In this document: one piece after another, positions 18,914 through 64,000 of the stretch | Position numbering within the stretch: the first letter of the stretch is position 1 | Layout of the letters: each line of letters opens with the position of its first letter | Assembly: GCA_944389465.1 (NCBI GenBank) | Contig: CALXML010000001.1 | Span: 79,427-143,426, forward strand | Length of the DNA stretch: 64,000 bases | Reading direction: 5' to 3' | Source of the DNA: an uncultured Alphaproteobacteria bacterium | Lineage (GTDB): Bacteria > Pseudomonadota > Alphaproteobacteria > Rs-D84 | Made by a program: the position numbers and the translations under genes | The notes under the pieces: model-generated | Seen by the model: only the letters and a program-made list of their open reading frames with translations | Database searches by the model: none | What the model was told of the DNA's origin: nothing

Positions 18914-19223
18914 ATTAAAAAACTTGTTTTTATTATCGTCTTAAAATATACTGATTTATGAATCCAAAGGGATTTGGGTTCGGGACCTGAAAAATCCTGT
19001 ATTTAGGCGATGCGGAAACGTATCGTAATCCGACTGAAAAAAACGTCGGCGCGTGTGTTGCGCCGTGTGTTTATATCACCCGATTTAAAAGGTCGGGGAT
19101 TCGCGATTATACAACAGTGGGAAACCATAAAAGTCGCGGGGTCATTCCTAAATATGATTTTTCAATCCCCGACCGCCAATTCCGTGGCGGTTTTTGTTTA
19201 ACAAAAGCAAAAGGGAATTGAAA

Positions 19224-19774
19224 ATGAAAAATCGTGTGTTTATTTGGGGCGTGGCTTTTGCGTGCGCCTGTGTTGGCAATGTTGTTGGGCGAACATGCAC
19301 CAGTTCTGTAAATATACAATGTCCGGTTACAGCGGGTGCAGCAAGTTGTTGCCGTATGTTGAATGAAACCTGTGCAGAGGCGGGCTGTGGCGGTACATCT
19401 GGTGGGGGGATGTGGAAGATTGCGACCCGTGTCCTGCGGCTGAATTGACATGGACGGTAAATCGCTTGTATGGCTTTCAGTACAGAATTTCTGGGTATAT
19501 GCAGGATGCAATAACATGCCGTTGTACACCACAATATATCACGCAATGCATAGCAGGCCGATACGGATTAAGCGTGATAACCACGAACAATATACCAACG
19601 GCTGATGAGGTGGATTGTAAATTTTGTCCGTCTGCTGGTGGGCGGATAAATCCGGCAACATCTGTGGCGGGGAAAAATAATCTTATAACGTCTTGTTATA
19701 TACCGGCCAATGCAACGGGCAGTGATGATACGGGCACGTTTACGGTCAGTAATGATTGTTATTATACAGAATAA
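19224..19774 (+). pseudogene. Cysteine-rich family member with the conserved CYY tail, interrupted by a frameshift in a G6 tract (19404-19409). Either phase-variable or a pseudogene.
   Basis: ATG 19224 with aaaggg RBS encodes the signal peptide MKNRVFIWGVAFACACVG... and the frame closes at 19448. ORF 19412..19774 in another frame ends ...CYIPANATGSDDTGTFTVSNDCYYTE. Adding one G to ggtgggggga gives a continuous ...SGGGDVEDCDPCP... protein. Confidence 0.55.
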
Positions 19775-54600: not shown

Positions 54601-54662
54601 CATAAAATGCTATTGACCCGATTCGCATAAATATGATATTATTGTTTAGGTAGAGAGAATTG

Positions 54663-57218
54663 ATGAAAAAAGAACTGAAAATTTCAAGGTTGGCAATAAT
54701 TTGCGTCTTGTGTACGGCGGTGTCTGGTGCGTATGGTGCATCGTCGGTTCGGTCGTTGGGTGGCAGTGGCACATATTCCAGTGCGTCTGATGCGGCGGCT
54801 GCGAACAGTGGTTCTGCCGGTTCAACTGCTGCTGTTCGTGGCGGGTCTGTGCGTGTAACGCCGTCGTCTGGTGTTTCTGGGACCGGTACAACAATAAATG
54901 CCGGAACAACAACCAGTGGCCGTGTTGCGACAACGCCGCGTTTATCAATTGGTCATTATTTGGGTGGTGGTACGTCTGTCAGTGGTGGCAGTTCGTTGCG
55001 TCCGCAAACACCGTCAACCGGTGGTGGCAGTATGAATCCGGGGGAATCCGGTGGTGCCAGTGGCTGGCAGGATGCTGTTGACGAATTGTGGGATGAAATT
55101 GATGGGTTGTATGCGGCCGATACTGATATCAGTGACCAATTACAAAACAAGCAAGATGTGCTGACTGCGTCTGATGGTTTGATAACCATTGAAAATGGTG
55201 AAATTTTCATTGAAACAGATAATTTGGCTGGCGCAATAGAAGATAAACTGGGGACATCACGCCAAATTGAATTGGGTGTTGATGGCGGTTATGTTGTGTG
55301 GCGTTATGCCGGTGATGCAGATTGGCAGAATTTGGTCGCACTGGATGATTTACGTGGTCCACAGGGCGAGGCCGGCGAATCCGTCACAGTAGAAGATGTT
55401 ATCAATGGCATAGAAGATGACCTGCAGGCGGCGGTTAATACCGCGGTATCTGCGGCGGTTGCGGCCGAAATTGAAAAGGCTGATTTGGTAACAAATACGG
55501 AGTTAGAAAAGTTTGCGACGGATGTAGTGGAACGTGGCTTACAGGCCAAGGCAAACGCCGCCGATGTTTACACCAAGGCCGAGGTTTATAATAAAACCGA
55601 GGTTGACAGCAAGGTTGCAGACATTGTTGCCGGCGATATGGACGAGGCATTGGCAAACAAAGCAGACAAGACGTATGTTGATACTGAATTATCAAAGAAA
55701 GCGGATAAAACAGAATTAGCAAATTATGCAACAACCGCCAGTGTGTCTGCATTGGGAACAGAAATTGATGATGTAGCCCAAGCGGCCGGTGGCGCGGCGG
55801 CAACTGCAACCGCGGCGGCATCTGATGCGGCGCGGGCGTTAAGTGGTCTGGATGCCAAGGAAAATGTTTCTAATAAACAGCAAACTGTAACAAACAGTGC
55901 GACGGATTATCCGTCCGGTGCGGCGGTAACCGCGGCGTTGGCGGACAAGGCCGATAAAACGGAATTGGCGGGTTATGCCACGACTGATGATTTAGATGCC
56001 AAGGCTGACAAGGCAACAACATTGGCCGGATATGGTATTACCGATGCATATACCACAACACAGATTGATGAAAAGTTAGAAGCCGTAACCGTTGGTGGTA
56101 TGGAGGGTATGGAACAAGTTCTGGCCGGCAAGCAAGATGTTGCCAATATGGCGCAAACTGTTACCGATGATGACACAAAATATCCATCTTCTGCGGCGGT
56201 ATATGGTGAATTGGAAACCAAGGCCAATGCATCTGATTTAAAAACCACAAATGAAACGGTAAATCAGATTGAACAAAACGTTACAAATGTAACGGAAACT
56301 GTTAATGAATTGGATGAAACAATTAATAATGCCGAAACAGGTTTGGTTAAACAGGTTAATGAAATAAACCAAAATGTTACCAATGTGACGCAAAGTGTTA
56401 CAAATATCACAGAACAGGTAACTGAAATTACAAATCCTGAAACCGGTTTGAAATCACAAATAGACGCGGTGGCCACAACGGCTGAATCTGCTGCACAGAC
56501 GGCGCAAACCGCACAACAGACGGCGCAAACCGCACAACAAACGGCGGAACAGGCCCAACAAACAGCCACCGGCGCACAAAGCGCGGTGGAAGCATTGGGG
56601 GCAACTGTTGGTAATGCAGAATCTGGTCTGGTCAAGGATGTTGCCGATGCAGCGGCCGCGGCCAATGATGCCAAGACAACCGCCGGTGCAGCACAGGAAA
56701 CTGCAAATACCGCACAGGAAACAGCCAATGCAGCAAAAAGTGCGGCTGATGCGGCAACTGCGGGATTGGCAAATAAACAGGATAAATTGGAATACACACC
56801 TGAAAATCAGGCATTGAAAACACAGGATATTGAAACCAATGCGGGTTCAACAACAATGTATCCATCGGCCAAGGCTGTTGTGGATTATGTTGCGAATGCT
56901 GTGGCCGAGGGCGTGGACATTAACACCGATAAAATCCAAAACGGTGCGGTTACCATGGAAAAATTGGGTGAAGATGTCAAGGCGGAATTAGATGCCAAGG
57001 CCGATGCAGATTCATTGGGTAAGTTGGCGCAAAGGGACGAAATTACGAATGCCGAGGTTGCGGCCAATGCCGCGATTGAAAAGTCTAAATTGGCGTCTGA
57101 TGTTCAGGCGGCATTGGACAAGGCTGAAAAAGCGGTCAGCACTGATGGTGCGGCTGGGAATAGTGTGCTGGGTACTGATGGTGACGGAAATCCAGTATGG
57201 TACGAAATAGCAATGTAG
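54663..57218 (+). CDS. Large secreted fibre protein 1 (851 aa; Ser/Gly-rich N-terminus, coiled-coil and phage-tail-fibre-like repeats)
   Basis: Signal peptide MKKELKISRLAIICVLCTAVSGAYGA. Repeats include KADKTELAGYATT, LAGYGITDAYT, NAESGLVKDV, KYPSAKAVVDYV and DKIQNGAVTMEKLGED. RBS gagag. Confidence 0.65.
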   Translation: MKKELKISRLAIICVLCTAVSGAYGASSVRSLGGSGTYSSASDAAAANSGSAGSTAAVRGGSVRVTPSSGVSGTGTTINAGTTTSGRVATTPRLSIGHYLGGGTSVSGGSSLRPQTPSTGGGSMNPGESGGASGWQDAVDELWDEIDGLYAADTDISDQLQNKQDVLTASDGLITIENGEIFIETDNLAGAIEDKLGTSRQIELGVDGGYVVWRYAGDADWQNLVALDDLRGPQGEAGESVTVEDVINGIEDDLQAAVNTAVSAAVAAEIEKADLVTNTELEKFATDVVERGLQAKANAADVYTKAEVYNKTEVDSKVADIVAGDMDEALANKADKTYVDTELSKKADKTELANYATTASVSALGTEIDDVAQAAGGAAATATAAASDAARALSGLDAKENVSNKQQTVTNSATDYPSGAAVTAALADKADKTELAGYATTDDLDAKADKATTLAGYGITDAYTTTQIDEKLEAVTVGGMEGMEQVLAGKQDVANMAQTVTDDDTKYPSSAAVYGELETKANASDLKTTNETVNQIEQNVTNVTETVNELDETINNAETGLVKQVNEINQNVTNVTQSVTNITEQVTEITNPETGLKSQIDAVATTAESAAQTAQTAQQTAQTAQQTAEQAQQTATGAQSAVEALGATVGNAESGLVKDVADAAAAANDAKTTAGAAQETANTAQETANAAKSAADAATAGLANKQDKLEYTPENQALKTQDIETNAGSTTMYPSAKAVVDYVANAVAEGVDINTDKIQNGAVTMEKLGEDVKAELDAKADADSLGKLAQRDEITNAEVAANAAIEKSKLASDVQAALDKAEKAVSTDGAAGNSVLGTDGDGNPVWYEIAM

Positions 57219-57229
57219 GGGGAATTTAA

Positions 57230-58951
57230 ATGAAAAAATCAAATATTGCATTTTCTGGATTTATGGCGGCGATTTTAATTAGTGCCGGCGCGGCAAATGC
57301 TGCAACAACCCAGATTGCCAGCAAAACATATGTGGATAACAAGGAAACATCAATCCTGCAAACGGTTGGTGACACATATGAAACCAAGGCGAATGTCCAA
57401 ATAATTCAACAAAATGTGAACAAATTGGGCGATACTATTAATAATGAAGAATCCGGTCTGAAGGCACAAATAGAAGACGCGGCCGCCGCGGCGCAAACCG
57501 CACAACAGACGGCGGAATCGGCCCAGCAAACGGCCACCGGTGCACAAAGTGCGGCCACGGCATTGGGGGTAACTGTTGGTAACGCTGAATCTGGATTGGT
57601 CAAGGATGTTAATGATTTGGAGGCAACAGTTGGTGGGTTGCAAACAACGGTCAGTGGTTTGGATAAAGAACTGGATTCCAAATTAGACAGCGCAACCGCC
57701 GCAACAACATATGAAAAAGTGTCTAATAAATCACAGGATTTGGCAACCGATGCGGGCAGTACAGATAAATATCCATCGGCCAAGGCAGTTGTGGACTGGG
57801 TCAGCAATACTGTGACCGAGGGCATAGAAATTAATACTGATAAAATCCAAAATGGCGCAATCACGACTGAAAAAATTGGGGATGATGCGGTAACGGCGGA
57901 TAAAATTGCACCTGATGCGGTTGGAAATGAACAAATTGCTGATGGCGCGGTATCATCTGATAAATTGGATGAAACGTTGGCCGGACAAATTGCCGATATT
58001 TCTGGCAAGCAGGACATTGCAATGGGTGTCGGTCACGAAAATCATATCGTGACAACTGATGCGTCCGGTAATATTACATCCGCCGCGACAATCGGCCAGG
58101 ACAAGGTTACTGGATTGACCGATGCCTTGGCGGGCAAGGCCGATGCATCCGCGTTGGAAGAAATTGAACAAAATGTGGAACAGGTTCAAAATCAATATAC
58201 AACAATTAATGAAACAGTAACGAAATTGGGCGATACAATTACCAACGAAGAAAGTGGTTTAAGCACCCAGATTACAAATATTACACAACAAATTGGTAAT
58301 GCAGAATCCGGTTTGGTCAAGGATGTCGCCGACGCGGCGGCCGCGGCTGAAACTGCGCAACAAACGGCCACCGGCGCACAAAATGCGGTTGATGCATTGG
58401 AAACGGTTGTTGATGGCAAGGCAAACGCATCCACAACACTGGCGGGATATGGCATAACCGATGCGTATACCAAGACCGAAACAGATGGTCTGTTGGATGC
58501 CAAGGCCGATGAAAGTGCTTTGGCTGGGTATGCAACAACGGGTGCGTTGACGTCTGGATTGGCAGGCAAAGAAGATACATCTAATAAGACCAAAATAATC
58601 AATGATGGCAATAAATCGTCTGAAACACTGTTCCCGACAATTGGCGCAATCACCACGTGGACAGATCAACAGATTCAACAGTTATCGACCGAGGGTATTC
58701 CTGTTAATCCAGATAACATTGGTTCAAATGCAATTACAACCGATAAAATTGCCAATGGTGCTGTTACAACAGAAAAATTGGCGGACGATTCCGTGACAGA
58801 AGACAAGCTGAGCAATGATGTTGTTGCATCTATTGATGCAAAGTTACCGGCGCCGGATGCGGATTGTGTTGCGGATTCAAATCTGTGCGTATTGACAGTA
58901 ACGCCCAGTGGTGATTTGGCGTGGGTTGCGGTAACACAGCCGGCAGAATAA
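57230..58951 (+). CDS. Secreted fibre protein 2 (573 aa), paralogue
   Basis: Signal peptide ending ...ANAATTQIASKTYVD. Shares ESGL/NAESGLVKDV, KYPSAKAVVDWV, DKIQNGAITTEKIGDD and LAGYGITDAYTKTE with protein 1. The C-terminal CVADSNLCVLTVTPSGDLAWVAVTQPAE is shared with protein 3. RBS aggggg. Confidence 0.65.
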   Translation: MKKSNIAFSGFMAAILISAGAANAATTQIASKTYVDNKETSILQTVGDTYETKANVQIIQQNVNKLGDTINNEESGLKAQIEDAAAAAQTAQQTAESAQQTATGAQSAATALGVTVGNAESGLVKDVNDLEATVGGLQTTVSGLDKELDSKLDSATAATTYEKVSNKSQDLATDAGSTDKYPSAKAVVDWVSNTVTEGIEINTDKIQNGAITTEKIGDDAVTADKIAPDAVGNEQIADGAVSSDKLDETLAGQIADISGKQDIAMGVGHENHIVTTDASGNITSAATIGQDKVTGLTDALAGKADASALEEIEQNVEQVQNQYTTINETVTKLGDTITNEESGLSTQITNITQQIGNAESGLVKDVADAAAAAETAQQTATGAQNAVDALETVVDGKANASTTLAGYGITDAYTKTETDGLLDAKADESALAGYATTGALTSGLAGKEDTSNKTKIINDGNKSSETLFPTIGAITTWTDQQIQQLSTEGIPVNPDNIGSNAITTDKIANGAVTTEKLADDSVTEDKLSNDVVASIDAKLPAPDADCVADSNLCVLTVTPSGDLAWVAVTQPAE

Positions 58952-59003
58952 AAAACGGATTTTGAAACTGAAAATAAAACAAACTAAAAGAAAGGAAAGG
59001 AAA

Positions 59004-60404
59004 ATGAAAAAATTAACAGCAGGTATATTTGCAACATTGTTGGCAGTTGTATCCACAGGTGCCGCAAATGCAGAAATCGCATCCAAGGGATACGTTGACC
59101 AACAGGTTGACACTGTGGAGGCAACAGTCGCGAACAAGGCTGATTCCGCAACTGTTACTGCGTTGGACACGCGTGTTGAAACGGCCGAGGGCGAAATTGA
59201 CGCGTTACAAACAACAACTGGTCAACATACAACCCAGATTGGCACAATTAATACAACATTGGCGGGTAAAGTTGATGATGCAGATATCGCAGATATGCAG
59301 GTAAAAGCAAATTTAACAACATCCACAGGATGGAATACAGATAAAACATCTGAAACCAAATATCCATCCAATGCCGCGGTTGATGCAGCAATTACCGCCG
59401 CAACAACAGGTATTGCCACTGATACAGAAGTTTCTGCATTAGGGAAACGTGTTGAAACATTGGAAACAGCGTCCGCAACACACGCAACAAAAACTGAATT
59501 AACAGACGGGTTGGCAGCCAAGGCAAATACCGCTGATTTGGGTGATTTGGCAACATTGGATGCCGTTGGCAGTGCACAAATTACAGATGGCGCTGTTGCG
59601 ACCGCTGATATTGCAGATAAAGCAGTAACCGAAGCAAAATTGTCTGATACAGTTAATGCATCTTTGGACAAGGCTGATACCGCATTACAACAGACTGATT
59701 TGGCAGCATATCAAACCAAGGAAGCGGCCGATGAGGCATATGCTGTAAAATCAACTGAACAAACCGCAAGTACAGCCAGCACAAATGCACAAACAGCATT
59801 AACAAACATTGGTACTTTGACAAATTTAACAACAACTGCCAAGGCTAATACCGTTGTGGCAATCAATGAAGTAGCCAGTGAAGCAGCCGCCGCCGCCAGT
59901 GCCGCATCCACAGCAGATGGCAAGGCCGTTGCAGCACAGAGTGCAGCAGAAGCCGCACAGGCGGATGTTGATGCGTTGGAAACAACTGTTTCAGGACAGG
60001 GCACACGTTTGACAACGGCCGAGGGTGAAATTGATTCCATCCAGTCAGAAATGGAAAATATGGCAACATCTGAAACTGTTTCTGGTTTGCAATCAACAGT
60101 AACAAATCTGCAAAGCACAAAGCAGGATAAAACAGATAATACATTGACCACAACCAGCAAGACTGTTGTCGGTGCTATTAATGAAGTAAAGACACAGGCC
60201 GACAAGGGCGTTTCTGATGCGGCAACTGCAAAATCAGCAGCAGACGCAGCCCAAGATGCCGCCGATGCAGCGCAGAAAACTGCCAATGCAGCAATTCCAG
60301 CACCAACAGATGCTTGTGCGGATTCCACAAACAAGTGCGTGTTGGTATCGTCCGGTGCGGGTAACTATTCTTGGGAAGTTATTGCCCGTGGCGATGCCGA
60401 ATAA
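59004..60404 (+). CDS. Secreted fibre protein 3 (466 aa), paralogue
   Basis: MKKLTAGIFATLLAVVSTGAANAEIASKGYVDQQV. The C-terminal CADSTNKCVLVSSGAGNYSWEVIARGDAE is shared with protein 2. RBS aaaggaaaggaaa. Confidence 0.65.
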   Translation: MKKLTAGIFATLLAVVSTGAANAEIASKGYVDQQVDTVEATVANKADSATVTALDTRVETAEGEIDALQTTTGQHTTQIGTINTTLAGKVDDADIADMQVKANLTTSTGWNTDKTSETKYPSNAAVDAAITAATTGIATDTEVSALGKRVETLETASATHATKTELTDGLAAKANTADLGDLATLDAVGSAQITDGAVATADIADKAVTEAKLSDTVNASLDKADTALQQTDLAAYQTKEAADEAYAVKSTEQTASTASTNAQTALTNIGTLTNLTTTAKANTVVAINEVASEAAAAASAASTADGKAVAAQSAAEAAQADVDALETTVSGQGTRLTTAEGEIDSIQSEMENMATSETVSGLQSTVTNLQSTKQDKTDNTLTTTSKTVVGAINEVKTQADKGVSDAATAKSAADAAQDAADAAQKTANAAIPAPTDACADSTNKCVLVSSGAGNYSWEVIARGDAE

Positions 60405-60515
60405 TAACGGCGTAACAATATGTGTGCGGTGTTAAATGTGCACCGCACATATAAAAACAGGTAAATGCGGAACAAAGTGATACTGAAAAATAATATTTGT
60501 AGGTAGATAACAGCA

Positions 60516-62093
60516 ATGATGAAGTCAAAAGGTCTTTTCGCAGTTTCATTTATGGCCATAATGGCGGTCAGCGTGGCGAATGCAGAAATTGCATCGCAGG
60601 GATACGTTGACGAGCAGGTCGCAACCAAGCAGGATGCGGGTGATTACGCAACCAATACTGCATTGGGGACGGTACGCACAACTGCAACAAATGCAGCCAG
60701 TGCCGCAGCAACCGCGCAATCTGCTGCTGATGCCGCAAAAAAGGCCGCTGATGCCGCACAGGATACAGCGGATGATGCCGCCGCCGCCGCGGCCACGGCA
60801 CAATCAACCGCCGCAGGCAAATTGTCCAGCATTTCTGGGTCAACCGGTGGCACGGGGAATGTGGTGACCAGTGTTTCGGCATCGGGTTCAACTGTTTCCG
60901 CGACCAAGGGTATAACTGCAGAAGAAACCAAAAATAAAGTTACATCTGTTCGTGCCGCAGCCAGTGCAACTGATACGGCATATCCATCTGAAAAGGCGGT
61001 GGCCACCGCTTTGGCGGCCAAGGCCAATACGTCTGCACTGTCCGGATATGCAACAACAACTGCATTGGGTGCAGTAGAGGACAAGGCCGAAGCCGCGCAA
61101 TCTGCGGCCAGTGCGGCCCAGACGGCTGCCGATGATGCCGCTGATGCCGCCAGTGCAGCGCAAAGCACCGCCAATGCCAAGGTGTCAACCGCCCAAGGAA
61201 CTGGGGCGGCAAACAAGGCCGTGATTACAAATGCGTCTGGGAATATTACAACTGGTACGATTGCAACGGGAATGATTACGGATGGCGCGGTGACAACAGC
61301 CAAGATAGGTACAGGTGCGGTTGGAAATGGTAATTTGGCTAATAATGCCGTGACCAGTGCAAAAATAGCAGATGGCACAATTGTAAATGCTGATATTTCC
61401 GATGATGCCGCCATAGATGCCGCCAAAATTGATGGGTTGGCGACGGTTGCGACATCGGGTTCTTATAATGATTTGGCGAACAAGCCGACAATTCCGACGG
61501 TAAATAATGCAACGTTGACCATTCAGAAAAATGGCGCAACCGTTGACACGTTTACTGCCAATGCGTCTGCAAATAAAACGATTAATATTACTGTGCCGAC
61601 AACAACCAGCCAGTTGACCAATAACAGTGGGTTTATTACATCGGCTGATTTGCCGGATGAATATGTGCTGACGGCCGCGACGGCGTCTGCATTGGGTGGT
61701 GTGAAATCCGGTGGTGATATTACTGTTGGTACGGATGGTGTGGTAACGGTTAACAGCGCAACCAAGGCTGACAGTGCGACAACGGCAACAACAGCGACAA
61801 ACGCAACCAATGCAACGAATGCCACAAATGCAGACCATGCCGATACAGCGGACAGTGCAACCACTGCGGCATCCGCGACCAAGGCAACACAGGATGCGTC
61901 CGGCAATGTGATTACAACCACATATGCGACCAAGGCACAAATAACCGCTTTGAACAGCGCTTCTACGGGAACGGGTGCGGTTGTGACGGCCGTGTCGCAA
62001 ACAGGTGGTAAAGTATCTGTAACCAAGGGAAATGTTCAGATTCCTGTTGGTGGTGAAAATGCAACGTCGTATGCGACAATTTGGATAGAATAA
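60516..62093 (+). CDS. Secreted fibre protein 4 (525 aa), paralogue
   Basis: MMKSKGLFAVSFMAIMAVSVANAEIASQGYVDEQV. Ala/Thr-rich with ITDGAVTTAKIGTGAV..NAVTSAKIADG repeats. The downstream terminator ends the cluster. Confidence 0.65.
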   Translation: MMKSKGLFAVSFMAIMAVSVANAEIASQGYVDEQVATKQDAGDYATNTALGTVRTTATNAASAAATAQSAADAAKKAADAAQDTADDAAAAAATAQSTAAGKLSSISGSTGGTGNVVTSVSASGSTVSATKGITAEETKNKVTSVRAAASATDTAYPSEKAVATALAAKANTSALSGYATTTALGAVEDKAEAAQSAASAAQTAADDAADAASAAQSTANAKVSTAQGTGAANKAVITNASGNITTGTIATGMITDGAVTTAKIGTGAVGNGNLANNAVTSAKIADGTIVNADISDDAAIDAAKIDGLATVATSGSYNDLANKPTIPTVNNATLTIQKNGATVDTFTANASANKTINITVPTTTSQLTNNSGFITSADLPDEYVLTAATASALGGVKSGGDITVGTDGVVTVNSATKADSATTATTATNATNATNATNADHADTADSATTAASATKATQDASGNVITTTYATKAQITALNSASTGTGAVVTAVSQTGGKVSVTKGNVQIPVGGENATSYATIWIE

Positions 62094-62095
62094 AA

Positions 62096-62123
62096 AATCC
62101 CCGCCATCCGGCGGGATTTTTTA
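62096..62123 (+). terminator. Intrinsic terminator after the fibre gene cluster
   Basis: ccccgcc atcc ggcggg hairpin followed by tttttt. Confidence 0.8.
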
Positions 62124-62165
62124 TTAGAGAACAGAGAGCAGAGTAGAGAACAGAGTATAAATGTT

Positions 62166-62197
62166 GTCCGCGTCTGAATAGACGCGGTGTTTTTTAT
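62166..62197 (+). terminator. Second hairpin/T-run about 45 nt downstream, following a purine-rich repeat
   Basis: ccgcgtct gaata agacgcgg followed by tgtttttt. Confidence 0.5.
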
Positions 62198-62203
62198 TTA
62201 CTG

Positions 62204-62778
62204 GATTGCTTCGCTGTGCTCGCAATGACAAGAGGAGGGGATAATTATTTACTTAAACCAGAACATATCTTGTTCGGACAAATCAAGCCAATTTGGATTT
62301 ATTGATTCTATTAGTTTGATTTTTTGTGTGCGTGAACCAGATTTTAATTTCTTTTCACGCTCCAAGGCGTCATTTACGTATTTGAAATTTTCGTAATATG
62401 CTAACTTGTTGCAATTATACTTTGCGGTAAATGAATTTTTATATGTTTTGTTTTTGTGTTCGTATACACGGCGACGTATATCGTTCGTAACACCTGTATA
62501 TAATGTGCCGTTTTTACGGTTGAACATTATATAGACGTAAAATTCATAATTTTTCATATTGAAATTATACATTATAAATGTGATAAAAGTGAATGTTTTT
62601 GTCATCGCAATTTACTGGATTGCTTCGCTGCGCTCGCAATGACAAGAGGGGGGGCTGTATACTGGTGTCATCGCGAGGGAGTGCAACGACCGTGGCGATC
62701 CATGGACAATATGTCGCGCATATGCGCGGGTATTATTTACTGGATTGCTTCGCTGCGCTCGCAATGACAAGAGGGGGC
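62204..62778. repeat. Three copies of a 45 bp direct repeat (tttactggattgcttcgctgYgctcgcaatgacaagaggRgggg) flanking a small GIY-YIG gene
   Basis: Copies at 62204-62245, 62611-62655 and 62736-62778. The cgcgcatatgcgcg palindrome lies between copies 2 and 3. Confidence 0.8.
62249..62557 (-). CDS. Small GIY-YIG nuclease superfamily protein
   Basis: MKNYEFYVYIMFNRKNGTLYTGVTNDIRRRVYEHK carries the GIY...YIG...R..EH motif. About 102 aa. The longer ORF-track start is an N-terminal extension. Confidence 0.7.
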   Translation of the reverse strand: MKNYEFYVYIMFNRKNGTLYTGVTNDIRRRVYEHKNKTYKNSFTAKYNCNKLAYYENFKYVNDALEREKKLKSGSRTQKIKLIESINPNWLDLSEQDMFWFK

Positions 62779-62789
62779 CTATTTTAACC

Positions 62790-62818
62790 TTGATTTATTA
62801 TCAATGGTAATTTAGAAT
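62790..62818 (+). promoter_or_regulatory. Candidate sigma70-type promoter TTGATT-17-TAGAAT
   Basis: ttgatt at 62790-62795, a 17 nt spacer, and tagaat at 62813-62818. Confidence 0.45.
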
Positions 62819-62825
62819 TTTTATG

Positions 62826-63040
62826 TGGTTTGGCGGTGCCGAACTACATAGAACATCAGTGTTAGTAGACGGGTTTAGTCACCTGAATATAACGCAATAA
62901 CTAACCTTTGTGTTCCCGACATACTAGTTGTCGGGAAGTCGTTCGCTATACAACAGCCCATTGGGTAAAGGCGACGGATTCATCGTTATATTTGAATGAC
63001 TAACTTCCCGACACCTGAACACTGGTCAGGTGTTTTTTTT
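62826..63040 (+). ncRNA. Candidate structured small RNA or cis-regulatory leader of about 215 nt ending in an intrinsic terminator, upstream of the PAP2 gene
   Basis: No ORF. Perfect hairpin ttcccgaca/tgtcgggaa (62922-62946). The cccgaca segment recurs at 63005-63013, next to the terminator cacctgaacactggtcaggtg followed by tttttttt (63011-63040). Confidence 0.4.
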
Positions 63041-63055
63041 ATCAAGGGATTAGTA

Positions 63056-63616
63056 ATGTCACGATTTTTGTTTGTGGGAATGGTCTGTGTCGCTGTGTCG
63101 TGTGGGGCGGTGTCCGATGCGCGCGCTGGGGATGTTATTGCCAAAATGGGGGATTTTATTTCTTTTAAAATTTTGCCTGTGTATTCTTTTGGGGCAACTG
63201 TATATAATTCTGATTGGAACAAGTGGTATGATTATGATTGGAATGGATTAAAACAATTAATAGTAGTTAATTTGATAAAATCAACGGTTGTTGACGGCAT
63301 AAAGGAAAATGTTTTTGAAATGCGTCCCAATGGCAGTGGGGGCGACAGTTTCCCGTCCGGTCATACTGCGAATGCGTTTGCACAGGCGGCCTTTATTCAT
63401 CGGCGTTATGGTATAAAGCAGGCGATTGTGCCGTATGTGTTGGCAACCTTTGTTGGGTTTTCGCGGGTAGAGGCGCGTATGCATTATACACACGATGTGT
63501 TGGCGGGGGCCGCAATTGGTTTTTTATCTGCGTGGATTTTTGCTGATGAAAAAAAGCAAGTTGTTGTCAGCGCAGATACAGACAGTGTGGGGTTACGGTT
63601 TAATTTCGTTTTTTAA
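63056..63616 (+). CDS. PAP2-superfamily lipid phosphatase (secreted or periplasmic)
   Basis: Signal peptide MSRFLFVGMVCVAVSCGAVS. PAP2 motifs PSGHT and SRVEARMHYTHD. RBS aaggga. Confidence 0.7.
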   Translation: MSRFLFVGMVCVAVSCGAVSDARAGDVIAKMGDFISFKILPVYSFGATVYNSDWNKWYDYDWNGLKQLIVVNLIKSTVVDGIKENVFEMRPNGSGGDSFPSGHTANAFAQAAFIHRRYGIKQAIVPYVLATFVGFSRVEARMHYTHDVLAGAAIGFLSAWIFADEKKQVVVSADTDSVGLRFNFVF

Positions 63617-63623
63617 TATCGCA

Positions 63624-63992
63624 TTAAAACAGCGATATTAATCCGATGCCAAAAAATGCCGCAATAATTGCGCCAATGGTCAATGGCCAGAAATATTTTT
63701 TCACGATTGCGTTGGCGCGTTCTTGGAAAAAATACAGCAATGTTGCAATTATTGCAAAGCGGCCCGTGCGGAATATTGCAGAAACTGCGACAAATATCCA
63801 CAGTGGATAACCAATAAAGCCCAACCAGATTGCCAACAGTTTATATGGTATTGGGGTGACCGCGGTCAATACTATGATTAATATTCCATATTTGGAAAAC
63901 ATTGGCTTAATTGCCGTTTCAATTAATTCCGGATTTGTAAATGTATTTATTATCCATTGTCCCAACGAATCCCACAGCCATGCACCAATCAT
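63624..63992 (-). CDS. DedA/YqaA-like inner membrane protein; the 5' end may lie beyond the window edge
   Basis: 122 aa with 3-4 hydrophobic segments. The ORF is still open 8 nt from the window end. Confidence 0.4.
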   Translation of the reverse strand: MIGAWLWDSLGQWIINTFTNPELIETAIKPMFSKYGILIIVLTAVTPIPYKLLAIWLGFIGYPLWIFVAVSAIFRTGRFAIIATLLYFFQERANAIVKKYFWPLTIGAIIAAFFGIGLISLF

Positions 63993-64000
63993 ATATGCCA

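Follow-up and report, generated by a model that had tools for sequence, protein, structure and literature searches.

In a 64,000-nt stretch of DNA from an uncultured alphaproteobacterium (contig CALXML010000001.1), called the window here and supplying all coordinates, a gene for a PAP2-family phosphatase is directly preceded by an RNA unit of about 217 nt that runs from a promoter to an intrinsic terminator. The unit is almost certainly a functional structured RNA, and it is very probably related to the sRNA-Xcc1 family (Rfam RF02221). With a probability of about 0.5, we read it as a leader-encoded antisense RNA cassette, of the type represented by sRNA-Xcc1 and by C4 of phage P1, that gates the expression of PAP2 at this locus.

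The RNA unit upstream of PAP2

The PAP2 gene (63056–63616, forward strand, as are all features of the unit) encodes a protein with a signal peptide and a PAP2 domain (Pfam PF01569, E = 9.2e-18), whose relatives come from uncultured gut Alphaproteobacteria close to Candidatus Enterousia. Upstream lies a sigma-70-type promoter in which TTGATT (62790–62795) and TAGAAT (62813–62818) are separated by 17 nt and make 9 of 12 consensus matches, predicting a transcription start at about 62825. Promoter-like sites are not enriched in the region scanned (4 found, 7.0 expected). When nine orthologous loci are aligned (alignment A2), the upstream columns that never vary are precisely the TTG of the -35 element and the TA...T of the -10 element; their spacing is fixed, and the spacer between them varies. 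The initial annotation of this DNA had proposed this promoter, an RNA unit without an open reading frame (ORF) coupled to PAP2, and a perfect 9-bp hairpin inside the unit, and all three hold up. It had also recognised the strong terminator (63011–63040), which consists of an 8–9-bp stem (63011–63018 / 63026–63033), a 7-nt loop and a run of eight T residues to 63040, but had placed it 15 nt before the ribosome-binding site (RBS); about 15 nt is the distance to the ATG, and the RBS is only about 4 nt away. Terminator-like sites number nine in a 2-kb scan (62000–64000), against 2.2 expected. The Shine-Dalgarno (SD) sequence AAGGGA occupies 63044–63049 within a translation-initiation region (TIR) spanning 63044–63058, with the ATG at 63056. 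No promoter-like site was found between the terminator and the ATG, where there is no room for a promoter of the gene's own, so that PAP2 is left to be transcribed solely through read-through of the terminator.

The 9-bp hairpin, P0 (62913–62937), pairs TTCCCGACA (62913–62921) with TGTCGGGAA (62929–62937) across a 7-nt loop and holds the 5' arm of a further helix, P1, described below. A third copy of TTCCCGACA lies at 63005–63013; the window contains this 9-mer four times where 0.38 occurrences would be expected, and in none of 100 shuffles is a count of four reached. A mobile-element boundary or attC-like site was considered for the triple occurrence and rejected, because relatives use other sequences for the same helices: the copies are the 5' arm of P0, the shared 5' arm of P1 and the 3' arm of P1. 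A coding explanation and leader-peptide attenuation were rejected as well. The unit holds no conserved ORF, since the 25-aa and 31-aa ORFs fall in sequence that is not conserved among orthologues, and an extension of PAP2 from the in-frame ATG at 62996 meets a TGA stop in the orthologues L001 and L002.

A comparison upstream of PAP2 orthologues, as the initial annotation had proposed, covered 13 orthologous loci of 60–99% amino acid identity and found the unit kept, with covarying helices and the promoter footprint, in nine of them. We call these type A (the window, L001, L002/L003, L032, L033, L035, L036, L037 and L038); one further locus (L034) has a related type B unit, and three are without a unit. 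The unit lies 15–45 nt upstream of the PAP2 start codon in 10 of the 13 loci, and the genes upstream of it vary (a GIY-YIG gene with repeats, a surface-protein gene, thymidylate synthase, RNase E/G), which indicates that the RNA travels with PAP2. The RNA body is 78–96% identical between orthologues whose PAP2 coding DNA is 65–89% identical. The 5'-terminal hairpin H1 (62825–62847), with 10 bp in the minimum free energy (MFE) fold, is a hairpin in nine of nine orthologues with completely different sequences, and the P2 stems and the terminator stem likewise change in sequence while keeping their pairing; a hairpin with a U-run stands at the terminator position in every type A orthologue. P0 is retained in all nine as a hairpin of 7–9 bp. 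The linker AACUAACCUUUG (62899–62910) contains an ACUAAC motif present in seven of the nine (ACUGAC in L032, GCUAAC in L035) and is otherwise variable.

Relationship to sRNA-Xcc1 and two mutually exclusive folds

At gathering thresholds, an Rfam scan of the window returned tRNA alone. In a permissive scan the 3' 91 nt of the unit (62930–63020) align to sRNA-Xcc1 end to end (model positions 1–87 of 87) with 38.6 bits, the E-value being 3.1e-5 in a local scan of 601 nt and 0.0033 when the entire window is scanned. The model is matched over its full length once more at 19091–19182 (49.6 bits, E = 7.9e-6), an element referred to as copy 2. The PAP2 orthologues score 35.7–38.2 bits, and canonical members from plasmid, phage and E. 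coli collections score 65–86 bits. Scanning metagenomes with the motif common to both window copies yielded further relatives in gut and marine samples, every scanned member of which scored 32–38 bits or fell under the reporting cut-off, and thus the window elements belong to a diverged UAUACAACAG/UAAAG subgroup that the Rfam threshold misses. Recognition by Rfam of a known element had been named in the initial annotation as a result that would overturn its view of the unit; this has come about in part, because the 3' half is recognised below the threshold but over its full length. The alternative offered there, an independent small RNA, comes close to the truth. In the permissive scan no riboswitch model matched at E <= 10. 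The remaining weak Rfam hits (RefA5, cyano_het_sRNA, sR035, Leu_leader at 19747 and anti-hemB at 62098) were set aside as terminator-like or chance matches. BLAST searches of phages and plasmids with the 221-nt element gave chance hits only, a search with the leader of a Nitratidesulfovibrio plasmid found only itself, and BLAST of the element against the 64-kb window gave only chance matches of 10–15 nt.

The matching segment forms a three-way junction (62930–63020) made of P1 (62930–62938 / 63004–63012), P2 (62939–62977) and P3 (62978–62982 / 62993–62997), with the tail ACC after P1. It shares with sRNA-Xcc1 the 9-bp P1, a P2 with the AUACAA internal loop, P3 and the RCC tail. It also shares a position directly upstream of a co-oriented protein gene (the PAP2 ATG lies 44 nt past P1) and an upstream region complementary to the P3 loop and the J3/1 strand, the latter being a criterion that we derived here and that lies outside the Rfam definition. 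The internal loop of P2 reads AAUACAA ... GAAUA in the family, below a GNRA-capped inner hairpin, whereas the window copy has UAUACAACAG ... UAAAG and an AUU triloop; the cap is GAAA in L032 and in copy 2 and GCAA in L037, so that these three share the GNRA-capped P2. The window element differs further in its distinct type A 5' domain, in the canonical intrinsic terminator that follows the junction, and in its downstream gene, a chromosomal exported PAP2 phosphatase of an uncultured gut alphaproteobacterium in place of an antirepressor or symE gene on a mobile element.

In Xanthomonas campestris, sRNA-Xcc1 is borne on integrons, phages and transposons and has been called trans-acting. The family is widespread, occurring in Stx phages, in Xylella and Xanthomonas islands, in Aeromonas and in Haemophilus, and is routinely annotated and linked to 'virulence'; to our knowledge no mechanism is known for it. 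In Xanthomonas it is a discrete RNA of ~88–100 nt, 88 nt by rapid amplification of cDNA ends, whose 5' end is the first base of P1 (PMC2996969). Members have been noted ahead of symE and of an ORF6N gene (bioRxiv 10.1101/2025.06.18.660453; bioRxiv 10.1101/2020.03.17.996009).

The whole RNA folds well beyond expectation: 62825–63042 (218 nt) reaches -73.3 kcal/mol (z = -4.16), and not one of 200 shuffles is as stable. The initial annotation had pointed out that the 3' arm of the 9-bp hairpin is complementary to CTTCCCGAC, and this pairing, at 63004–63012, is P1 of the junction, so that P0 and P1 compete for one strand. A weightier competitor is a long-range helix of 25–30 nt and 23 pairs in which a 5' domain, GACGGGUUUAGUCACCUGAAUAUAACG (62868–62894, inverted repeat I3), pairs with CGUUAUAUUUGAAUGACUAA...CCCGAC (62984–63012), a segment made up of the loop and 3' arm of P3, J3/1 and the 3' arm of P1. 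Because the 5' domain, which we call the decoy, pairs with the 3' half of the three-way junction, two mutually exclusive folds are possible, one rod-like and one with the junction open. Exclusive folds had been foreseen in the initial annotation as a switch between the hairpin and the terminator; the exclusivity stands, but the alternative maintained in evolution is the helix 62868–62894 / 62984–63012, and P1 overlaps the terminator stem by 2 nt only (6 nt if extended).

Across the orthologues, 98% of the alignment cells of the long-range helix are paired, and twice, independently, both partners of a pair have changed in a compensatory way: one U-A pair is C-G in four sequences, and a different U-A pair is C-G only in L038. 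In the sRNA-Xcc1 fold these positions belong to loops or to the junction. In the outer stem of P2, three pairs show compensatory changes. The complementarity of the window 5' domain to the 3' half of the core exceeds that of same-locus control windows (z = -2.6, p = 0.007). H1, P0, P2 and the long-range helix are all present in the MFE fold of every orthologue, and all nine pairs of P1 and all five of P3 are possible in nine of nine orthologues. The positions that serve both folds (the P1 arms and the P3 stem) are invariant, and so is the 5' arm of P3 although it is unpaired in the rod-like fold; this pattern is what dual constraint predicts. Calculated energies for the window RNA are -72.2 kcal/mol for the rod-like fold with the terminator, -73.2 kcal/mol for the rod-like fold extended onto the terminator loop and -64.9 kcal/mol for the junction with the terminator. 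A fold with P1 extended is 5–9 kcal/mol less stable than folds carrying the long-range helix.

Pairing of this kind is not confined to type A. For 25 elements drawn from every subgroup, the complementarity of the 110 nt preceding P1 to the 3' half of the junction exceeded that of same-locus control windows (z from -0.4 to -5.7, p below 0.03 in 19), and the pairing partners in type A, type B (copy 2, L024, L034), marine and phage members are entirely different sequences. Hairpins that sequester P1 as P0 does, in other sequences or registers, are found in copy 2, L024, L034 and the marine relatives. As the upstream pairing is family-wide and covaries on this large scale, the 87-nt Rfam model covers just the 3' part of a larger RNA, probably a bistable one of 200–250 nt, which is a testable point. 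Six marine loci (L009, L019, L020, L021, L023 and L025) have an additional conserved element between decoy and P0 that resembles an H-type pseudoknot, with CGGU...ACCG interleaved with a covarying 6–8-bp stem; the marine relatives precede lipoprotein or exported-protein genes and are without a U-tract terminator. A GGGG...CCCC hairpin in the marine relatives was rejected, as folding and locus comparison show it to be the 5' strand of the long-range helix.

Exclusive folds ahead of a terminator are also what a transcription attenuator or riboswitch would have, in which a ligand, a protein or a physical signal picks the fold and so turns the terminator at 63011–63040 on or off with no antisense targeting. 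The unit resembles such leaders in its order of promoter, structured leader, terminator and gene, in the evolutionary maintenance of exclusive helices and in the dependence of PAP2 on read-through, and the internal loop of P2, with its conserved AUACAA, is a possible binding site. A candidate antiterminator strand, CAGUGUU (62857–62863), is complementary to AACACUG (63018–63024) in the terminator loop. More broadly, 62850–62866 can pair with the loop and 3' arm of the terminator, which is favoured in nascent-chain equilibrium folding before the terminator is complete, and the terminator and antiterminator states lie 1 kcal/mol apart. The CAGUGUU/AACACUG pair of the window becomes CACAGUU/AACUGUG in L035, L036 and L038 (CACAG/CUGUG only in L037), apparently a compensatory change. 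Support for this pairing is modest: the duplex of about -12 kcal/mol has p ~0.05 per sequence in seven of the nine orthologues and is not significant in the other two, the sequences are related, and the terminator wins the MFE fold in L035, L036 and L038. There is neither a match to a riboswitch or leader family nor a conserved leader peptide, and many relatives are without a U-tract terminator.

The genes downstream of family members also speak against a sensor of this sort. They include antirepressor, BRO, KilA-N and ORF6N genes, symE (from the literature), and genes for a lipoprotein, a Cys-rich exported protein and PAP2, a range too wide for a single metabolite. Within the junction, variation is greatest in the loops that would do the sensing, and these covary with downstream ribosome-binding regions, unlike a ligand pocket. 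A metabolite riboswitch is unlikely because relatives precede unrelated genes and because of this covariation, and we consider the attenuator or riboswitch explanation in its general form, the logic suggested in the initial annotation, distinctly unlikely. Processive antitermination of the lambda pR'-6S-tR' / Q type or of the put type was considered since one relative lies just after a Q gene; nothing else supports it.

C4-type architecture and the putative PAP2 target

The antisense reading draws on the relatives. In eight canonical sRNA-Xcc1 loci, two blocks complementary to the P3 loop and J3/1 lie about 100 and 90 nt upstream of P1, and the same two blocks recur at -30 to +1 of the downstream AUG, covarying from locus to locus. 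The first and second blocks are CTCGAAA and CCCAAAAG / CCAAAGGAGG in L042, TCAGAAC and CTAAAG in L043, TCGAAA and CAAACAG in L044, TTCGAAA and CTCAGTG in L045, TTGAAC and CACAAAG in L006, and TCGAAAC and TGAACAC in L005; L007 has CAAGCAG as its second block and none listed as its first. Canonical copies stand directly ahead of annotated antirepressor genes (phage TL-2011c, ant of Aaphi23) and also ahead of a P22AR-C gene and of BRO / Bro-N genes. One of these loci holds both kinds of RNA: L043, a Stx2a phage, carries a bona fide C4 RNA (RF01695, 74.3 bits) with an a1b1 element (RF03163) about 560 nt upstream of its sRNA-Xcc1 copy and ahead of a homologous gene of the ORF6N type. Blocks of TTGGCGT and GAAAAAGG that are complementary to the hairpin loop and 3' junction strand of this C4 lie on both sides of it, and the downstream GAAAAAGG overlaps the SD sequence. 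Since the eight canonical loci have the same arrangement of blocks as the C4 of L043, namely a1 and b1 upstream, a' and b' in the RNA, and a2 and b2 downstream, sRNA-Xcc1 is built like C4.

Several observations on these loci stand beside this comparison. Phages of the Stx2a type carry tandem cassettes, either C4 plus sRNA-Xcc1 (446–641 and 1199–1282 in L043) or two sRNA-Xcc1 copies (660–749 and 1199–1284 in L042), each ahead of its own gene, which is of the antirepressor or ORF6N type where checked; the second cassette of L042 precedes an unannotated hypothetical protein. Between the junction and the a1/b1 blocks, canonical leaders also have a conserved hairpin (loop CCCGUCAG) with U7-AUGCC after it. 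On the E. coli GMM060 chromosome (L045, 193836–199934), sRNA-Xcc1, a P22AR-C (antirepressor-like) gene and an ISL3 transposase are inserted together in bcsE, and the genome has sRNA-Xcc1 matches at 13 places; Aeromonas salmonicida J223 reportedly has 15 copies. If the sRNA-Xcc1 copies travel on this unit, that could explain such many-copy genomes.

C4, from the immI operon of phages P1 and P7, is a classical antisense RNA: it is transcribed together with its target and, in P1, silences icd/ant. Like C4, the window RNA would be an antisense RNA upstream of the gene it controls and sharing its promoter, with a three-way junction in which the loop (b') and the 3' strand of the junction (a') have complements upstream, b1 and a1; here these are the decoy, with the blocks AATATAACG and TTAGTCA, and the segment 62984–63012, which is thus the candidate antisense surface. 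Further likenesses are the tRNA-like closing stem followed by RCCA and, in relatives, the a2 and b2 copies over the RBS and the antirepressor genes downstream, as in P1. Two differences are that the a2/b2 target in the window is cut down to about 9 nt and that a terminator lies between the RNA and its putative target, a gene that is not an antirepressor. The C4 model RF01695 has no match at E <= 10 in 62550–63150 nor at E <= 1 in the window, Rfam assigns sRNA-Xcc1 to no clan and so gives no clan link to C4, and a literature search found no paper linking the two. Regulation of ant by C4 is given in the passage of PMC8201110 that cites Citron & Schuster 1990, and the C4 precursor is named as an RNase P substrate in the passage of PMC4919922 that cites Hartmann et al. 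1995.

The latter has a counterpart at the ends of P1. Most family members have a U before P1 and RCC(A) after it: ACC in the window unit (copy 1), GCCA in copy 2 (19175–19178) and ACCA or GCCA in phage members. In copy 1, U stands at -1 and G at +1 (62929/62930), and ACC follows P1 at 63013–63015. These flanks resemble the acceptor end of a tRNA with the RCCA that RNase P recognises, like those of the C4 precursor, and are consistent with a putative maturation of this type, which fits because P1 is flanked by U and RCC(A) and because the Xanthomonas RNA starts exactly at P1.

How far does this layout extend to the window? In copy 2 it is clear. This cassette (18924–19242, forward strand) has the promoter TTGTTT, 16 nt, TATACT (18924–18951), a 5' hairpin from 18960, a1/b1 at 18982–19007, an anti-P1 segment at 19076–19084, the junction at 19091–19182, a terminator at 19173–19195, and an RBS and ATG (19224) of a gene for a small Cys-rich exported protein. 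Here TGAAAAATCCTGTATTTA (18988–19005) recurs as TGAAAAATCGTGTGTTTA at +1 to +18 of the gene, an 18-nt repeat with p < 0.002. Among the PAP2 orthologues, L035–L038 have TTAGTCA and AACATAAC upstream and again across the PAP2 AUG, and the predicted duplex at the PAP2 start is about -25 kcal/mol in L035–L037 (z -2.7 to -3.8) and -20.8 kcal/mol in L038 (z -1.9), with p from 0.000 to 0.067. In the window itself the a2 remnant GGGAUUAGU (63046–63054) can pair with ACUAA..UCCC (63000–63010) through GGGA/UCCC and UUAGU/ACUAA. The logic of C4 would thus apply to copy 2 and to L035–L038, and weakly to the flagged copy. Ranking targets by energy within the window singles out neither PAP2 nor the copy-2 gene, and therefore the antisense claim for the flagged locus rests on the orthologues and the family architecture and not on the window alone. 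In passing, the copy-2 gene is split into two overlapping ORFs in the window (19194–19448 and 19412–19774, forward strand) but is one intact 183-aa ORF in the L024 orthologue, which points to a frameshift, by pseudogene formation or assembly error.

A weaker target in the window suits the alternative of a free-standing trans-acting small RNA gene with targets elsewhere, whose proximity to PAP2 would reflect a shared promoter region or leaky termination. Its own promoter and strong terminator, the U-rich 3' end typical of Hfq/ProQ-dependent small RNAs, the weak pairing with the PAP2 initiation region, and the discrete RNA detected in Xanthomonas (PMC2996969), which has been called trans-acting, would all fit. 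Such a gene would not be expected to stay 15–45 nt from the PAP2 start in 10 of 13 loci despite changing upstream neighbours, nor to supply the only promoter that PAP2 has. Moreover, sister orthologues and copy 2 have their best target in the gene that directly follows, and nothing similar to the a1/b1 blocks turned up elsewhere in the 64-kb window. We think a purely trans-acting role unlikely.

The same erosion could mean that the unit is a decaying relic of a mobile antirepressor-type cassette, now merely a promoter and 5' untranslated region for PAP2 with no switching. Erosion has reached the a2/b2 target in the window lineage, P2 has lost its GNRA loop, and prophages, integron cassettes and transposons are where the family otherwise typically occurs. 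The RNA body is, however, under stronger constraint than the adjacent coding sequence among these orthologues of 60–99% amino acid identity, compensatory substitutions are present, and elements specific to either fold are preserved, which makes a relic very improbable.

Proposed mechanism and its standing

In our best reading, the unit is a diverged, chromosomally recruited member of the leader-encoded antisense RNAs of the sRNA-Xcc1 / C4 type, with a built-in decoy and an added intrinsic terminator. Transcription would start at about 62825 from the conserved sigma-70 promoter, and most transcripts probably end at the terminator (63011–63040) to give an RNA of about 217 nt. Its 3' 90 nt could adopt the sRNA-Xcc1 junction, which would expose the P3 loop and J3/1 together with the 3' arm of P1 (62984–63012). 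The decoy at 62868–62894 would pair with exactly those exposed segments while P0 (62913–62937) holds the other arm of P1, and by virtue of this decoy and P0 pairing the RNA would toggle between a masked, rod-like fold and an open junction fold. The 5' end of P1 may also be cut by an RNase P-like activity, as for C4. In the relatives, where the same two segments are complementary to the downstream ribosome-binding region, the open RNA would block translation, either in cis, on transcripts that read through, or in trans, just as C4 blocks that of icd/ant in P1. In the window, PAP2 would be reached by read-through alone, and its SD sequence is predicted to be paired with the leader: in the MFE fold of the read-through transcript 62825–63085, 62900–62910, the linker with the ACUAAC motif, pairs with 63043–63054, and the probability of being unpaired is 0.05–0.19 for the first five SD bases (63044–63048). 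The net effect would be low PAP2 expression except when transcription reads through and the leader keeps its decoy-bound fold.

A number of observations weigh against this antisense interpretation. A strong terminator between RNA and target is not known to belong to the C4 paradigm of P1. The PAP2 initiation region pairs with the 3' half of the junction at -14.3 kcal/mol, which is not above chance (p = 0.17), and PAP2 ranks 19th of the 140 TIRs in the window by pairing energy. The direct repeat of a1b1 and a2b2 is not significant at the flagged copy (p = 0.39), where GGGA and UUAGU alone remain, and in the closest relatives, L001 and L002, UUAGU is lost too; the alphaproteobacterial relatives L034, L024 and the marine loci are without a clear a2/b2. 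The gathering score of RF02221, 53 bits, is reached by neither window copy (38.6 and 49.6 bits), and the window copy is missing the GNRA loop of P2. Finally, the junction fold is 8–10 kcal/mol less stable than the rod-like fold, and since P1 and P3 are invariant among the nine type A sequences it is itself without covariation support in this lineage.

A variant of the two-fold scheme would make the junction a sensor, with a small molecule, an RNase P-like tRNA-processing enzyme or a protein that recognises the AUACAA loop shifting the balance of rod and junction and so setting read-through and access to the SD sequence. We regard this as a long shot. If true, bistable leaders of this kind would form a new class resembling riboswitches, taken over from phage immunity cassettes to control envelope genes (PAP2, the exported Cys-rich protein, lipoproteins) in uncultured Alphaproteobacteria.

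Under the antisense cassette reading, the locus is of value mainly because it points to a likely mechanism for an orphan Rfam family and to a hidden subfamily within it. The C4-like architecture ahead of antirepressor genes gives sRNA-Xcc1 a concrete and experimentally precedented mechanism. The diverged subgroup under the Rfam threshold appears to have been recruited to chromosomal genes for exported and envelope proteins in uncultured gut and marine Alphaproteobacteria. Both are testable points. For annotation, such orphan leaders should not be called riboswitches, and a lower threshold or a rebuilt model would recover the subfamily.

Further features concern PAP2 itself and its surroundings. 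The PAP2 protein (186 aa) ends in ...GLRFNFVF, an aromatic end reminiscent of outer-membrane beta-barrel signatures and unusual for a PAP2 phosphatase. Its N-terminus reads MSRFLF... in the window lineage and MKNIT... in L035–L038, a difference that goes together with the lost a2/b2 target. A 45-nt repeat, TTATTTACTGGATTGCTTCGCTGYGCTCGCAATGACAAGAGGRGG, occurs shortly before the RNA unit in three copies of 91–100% identity (62194–62238, 62608–62652 and 62733–62777); two of them flank a small GIY-YIG nuclease gene (62249–62605, minus strand) and the third lies about 130 nt beyond the gene. The insertion looks like a small mobile or repeat element, because the close relatives L002 and L003 are without it at this place. 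Farther upstream, four consecutive large Ala/Thr-rich ORFs (852, 573, 480 and 525 aa; 54660–62093, forward strand) with signal-peptide-like starts and no significant Pfam match probably encode repetitive surface or fibre proteins.

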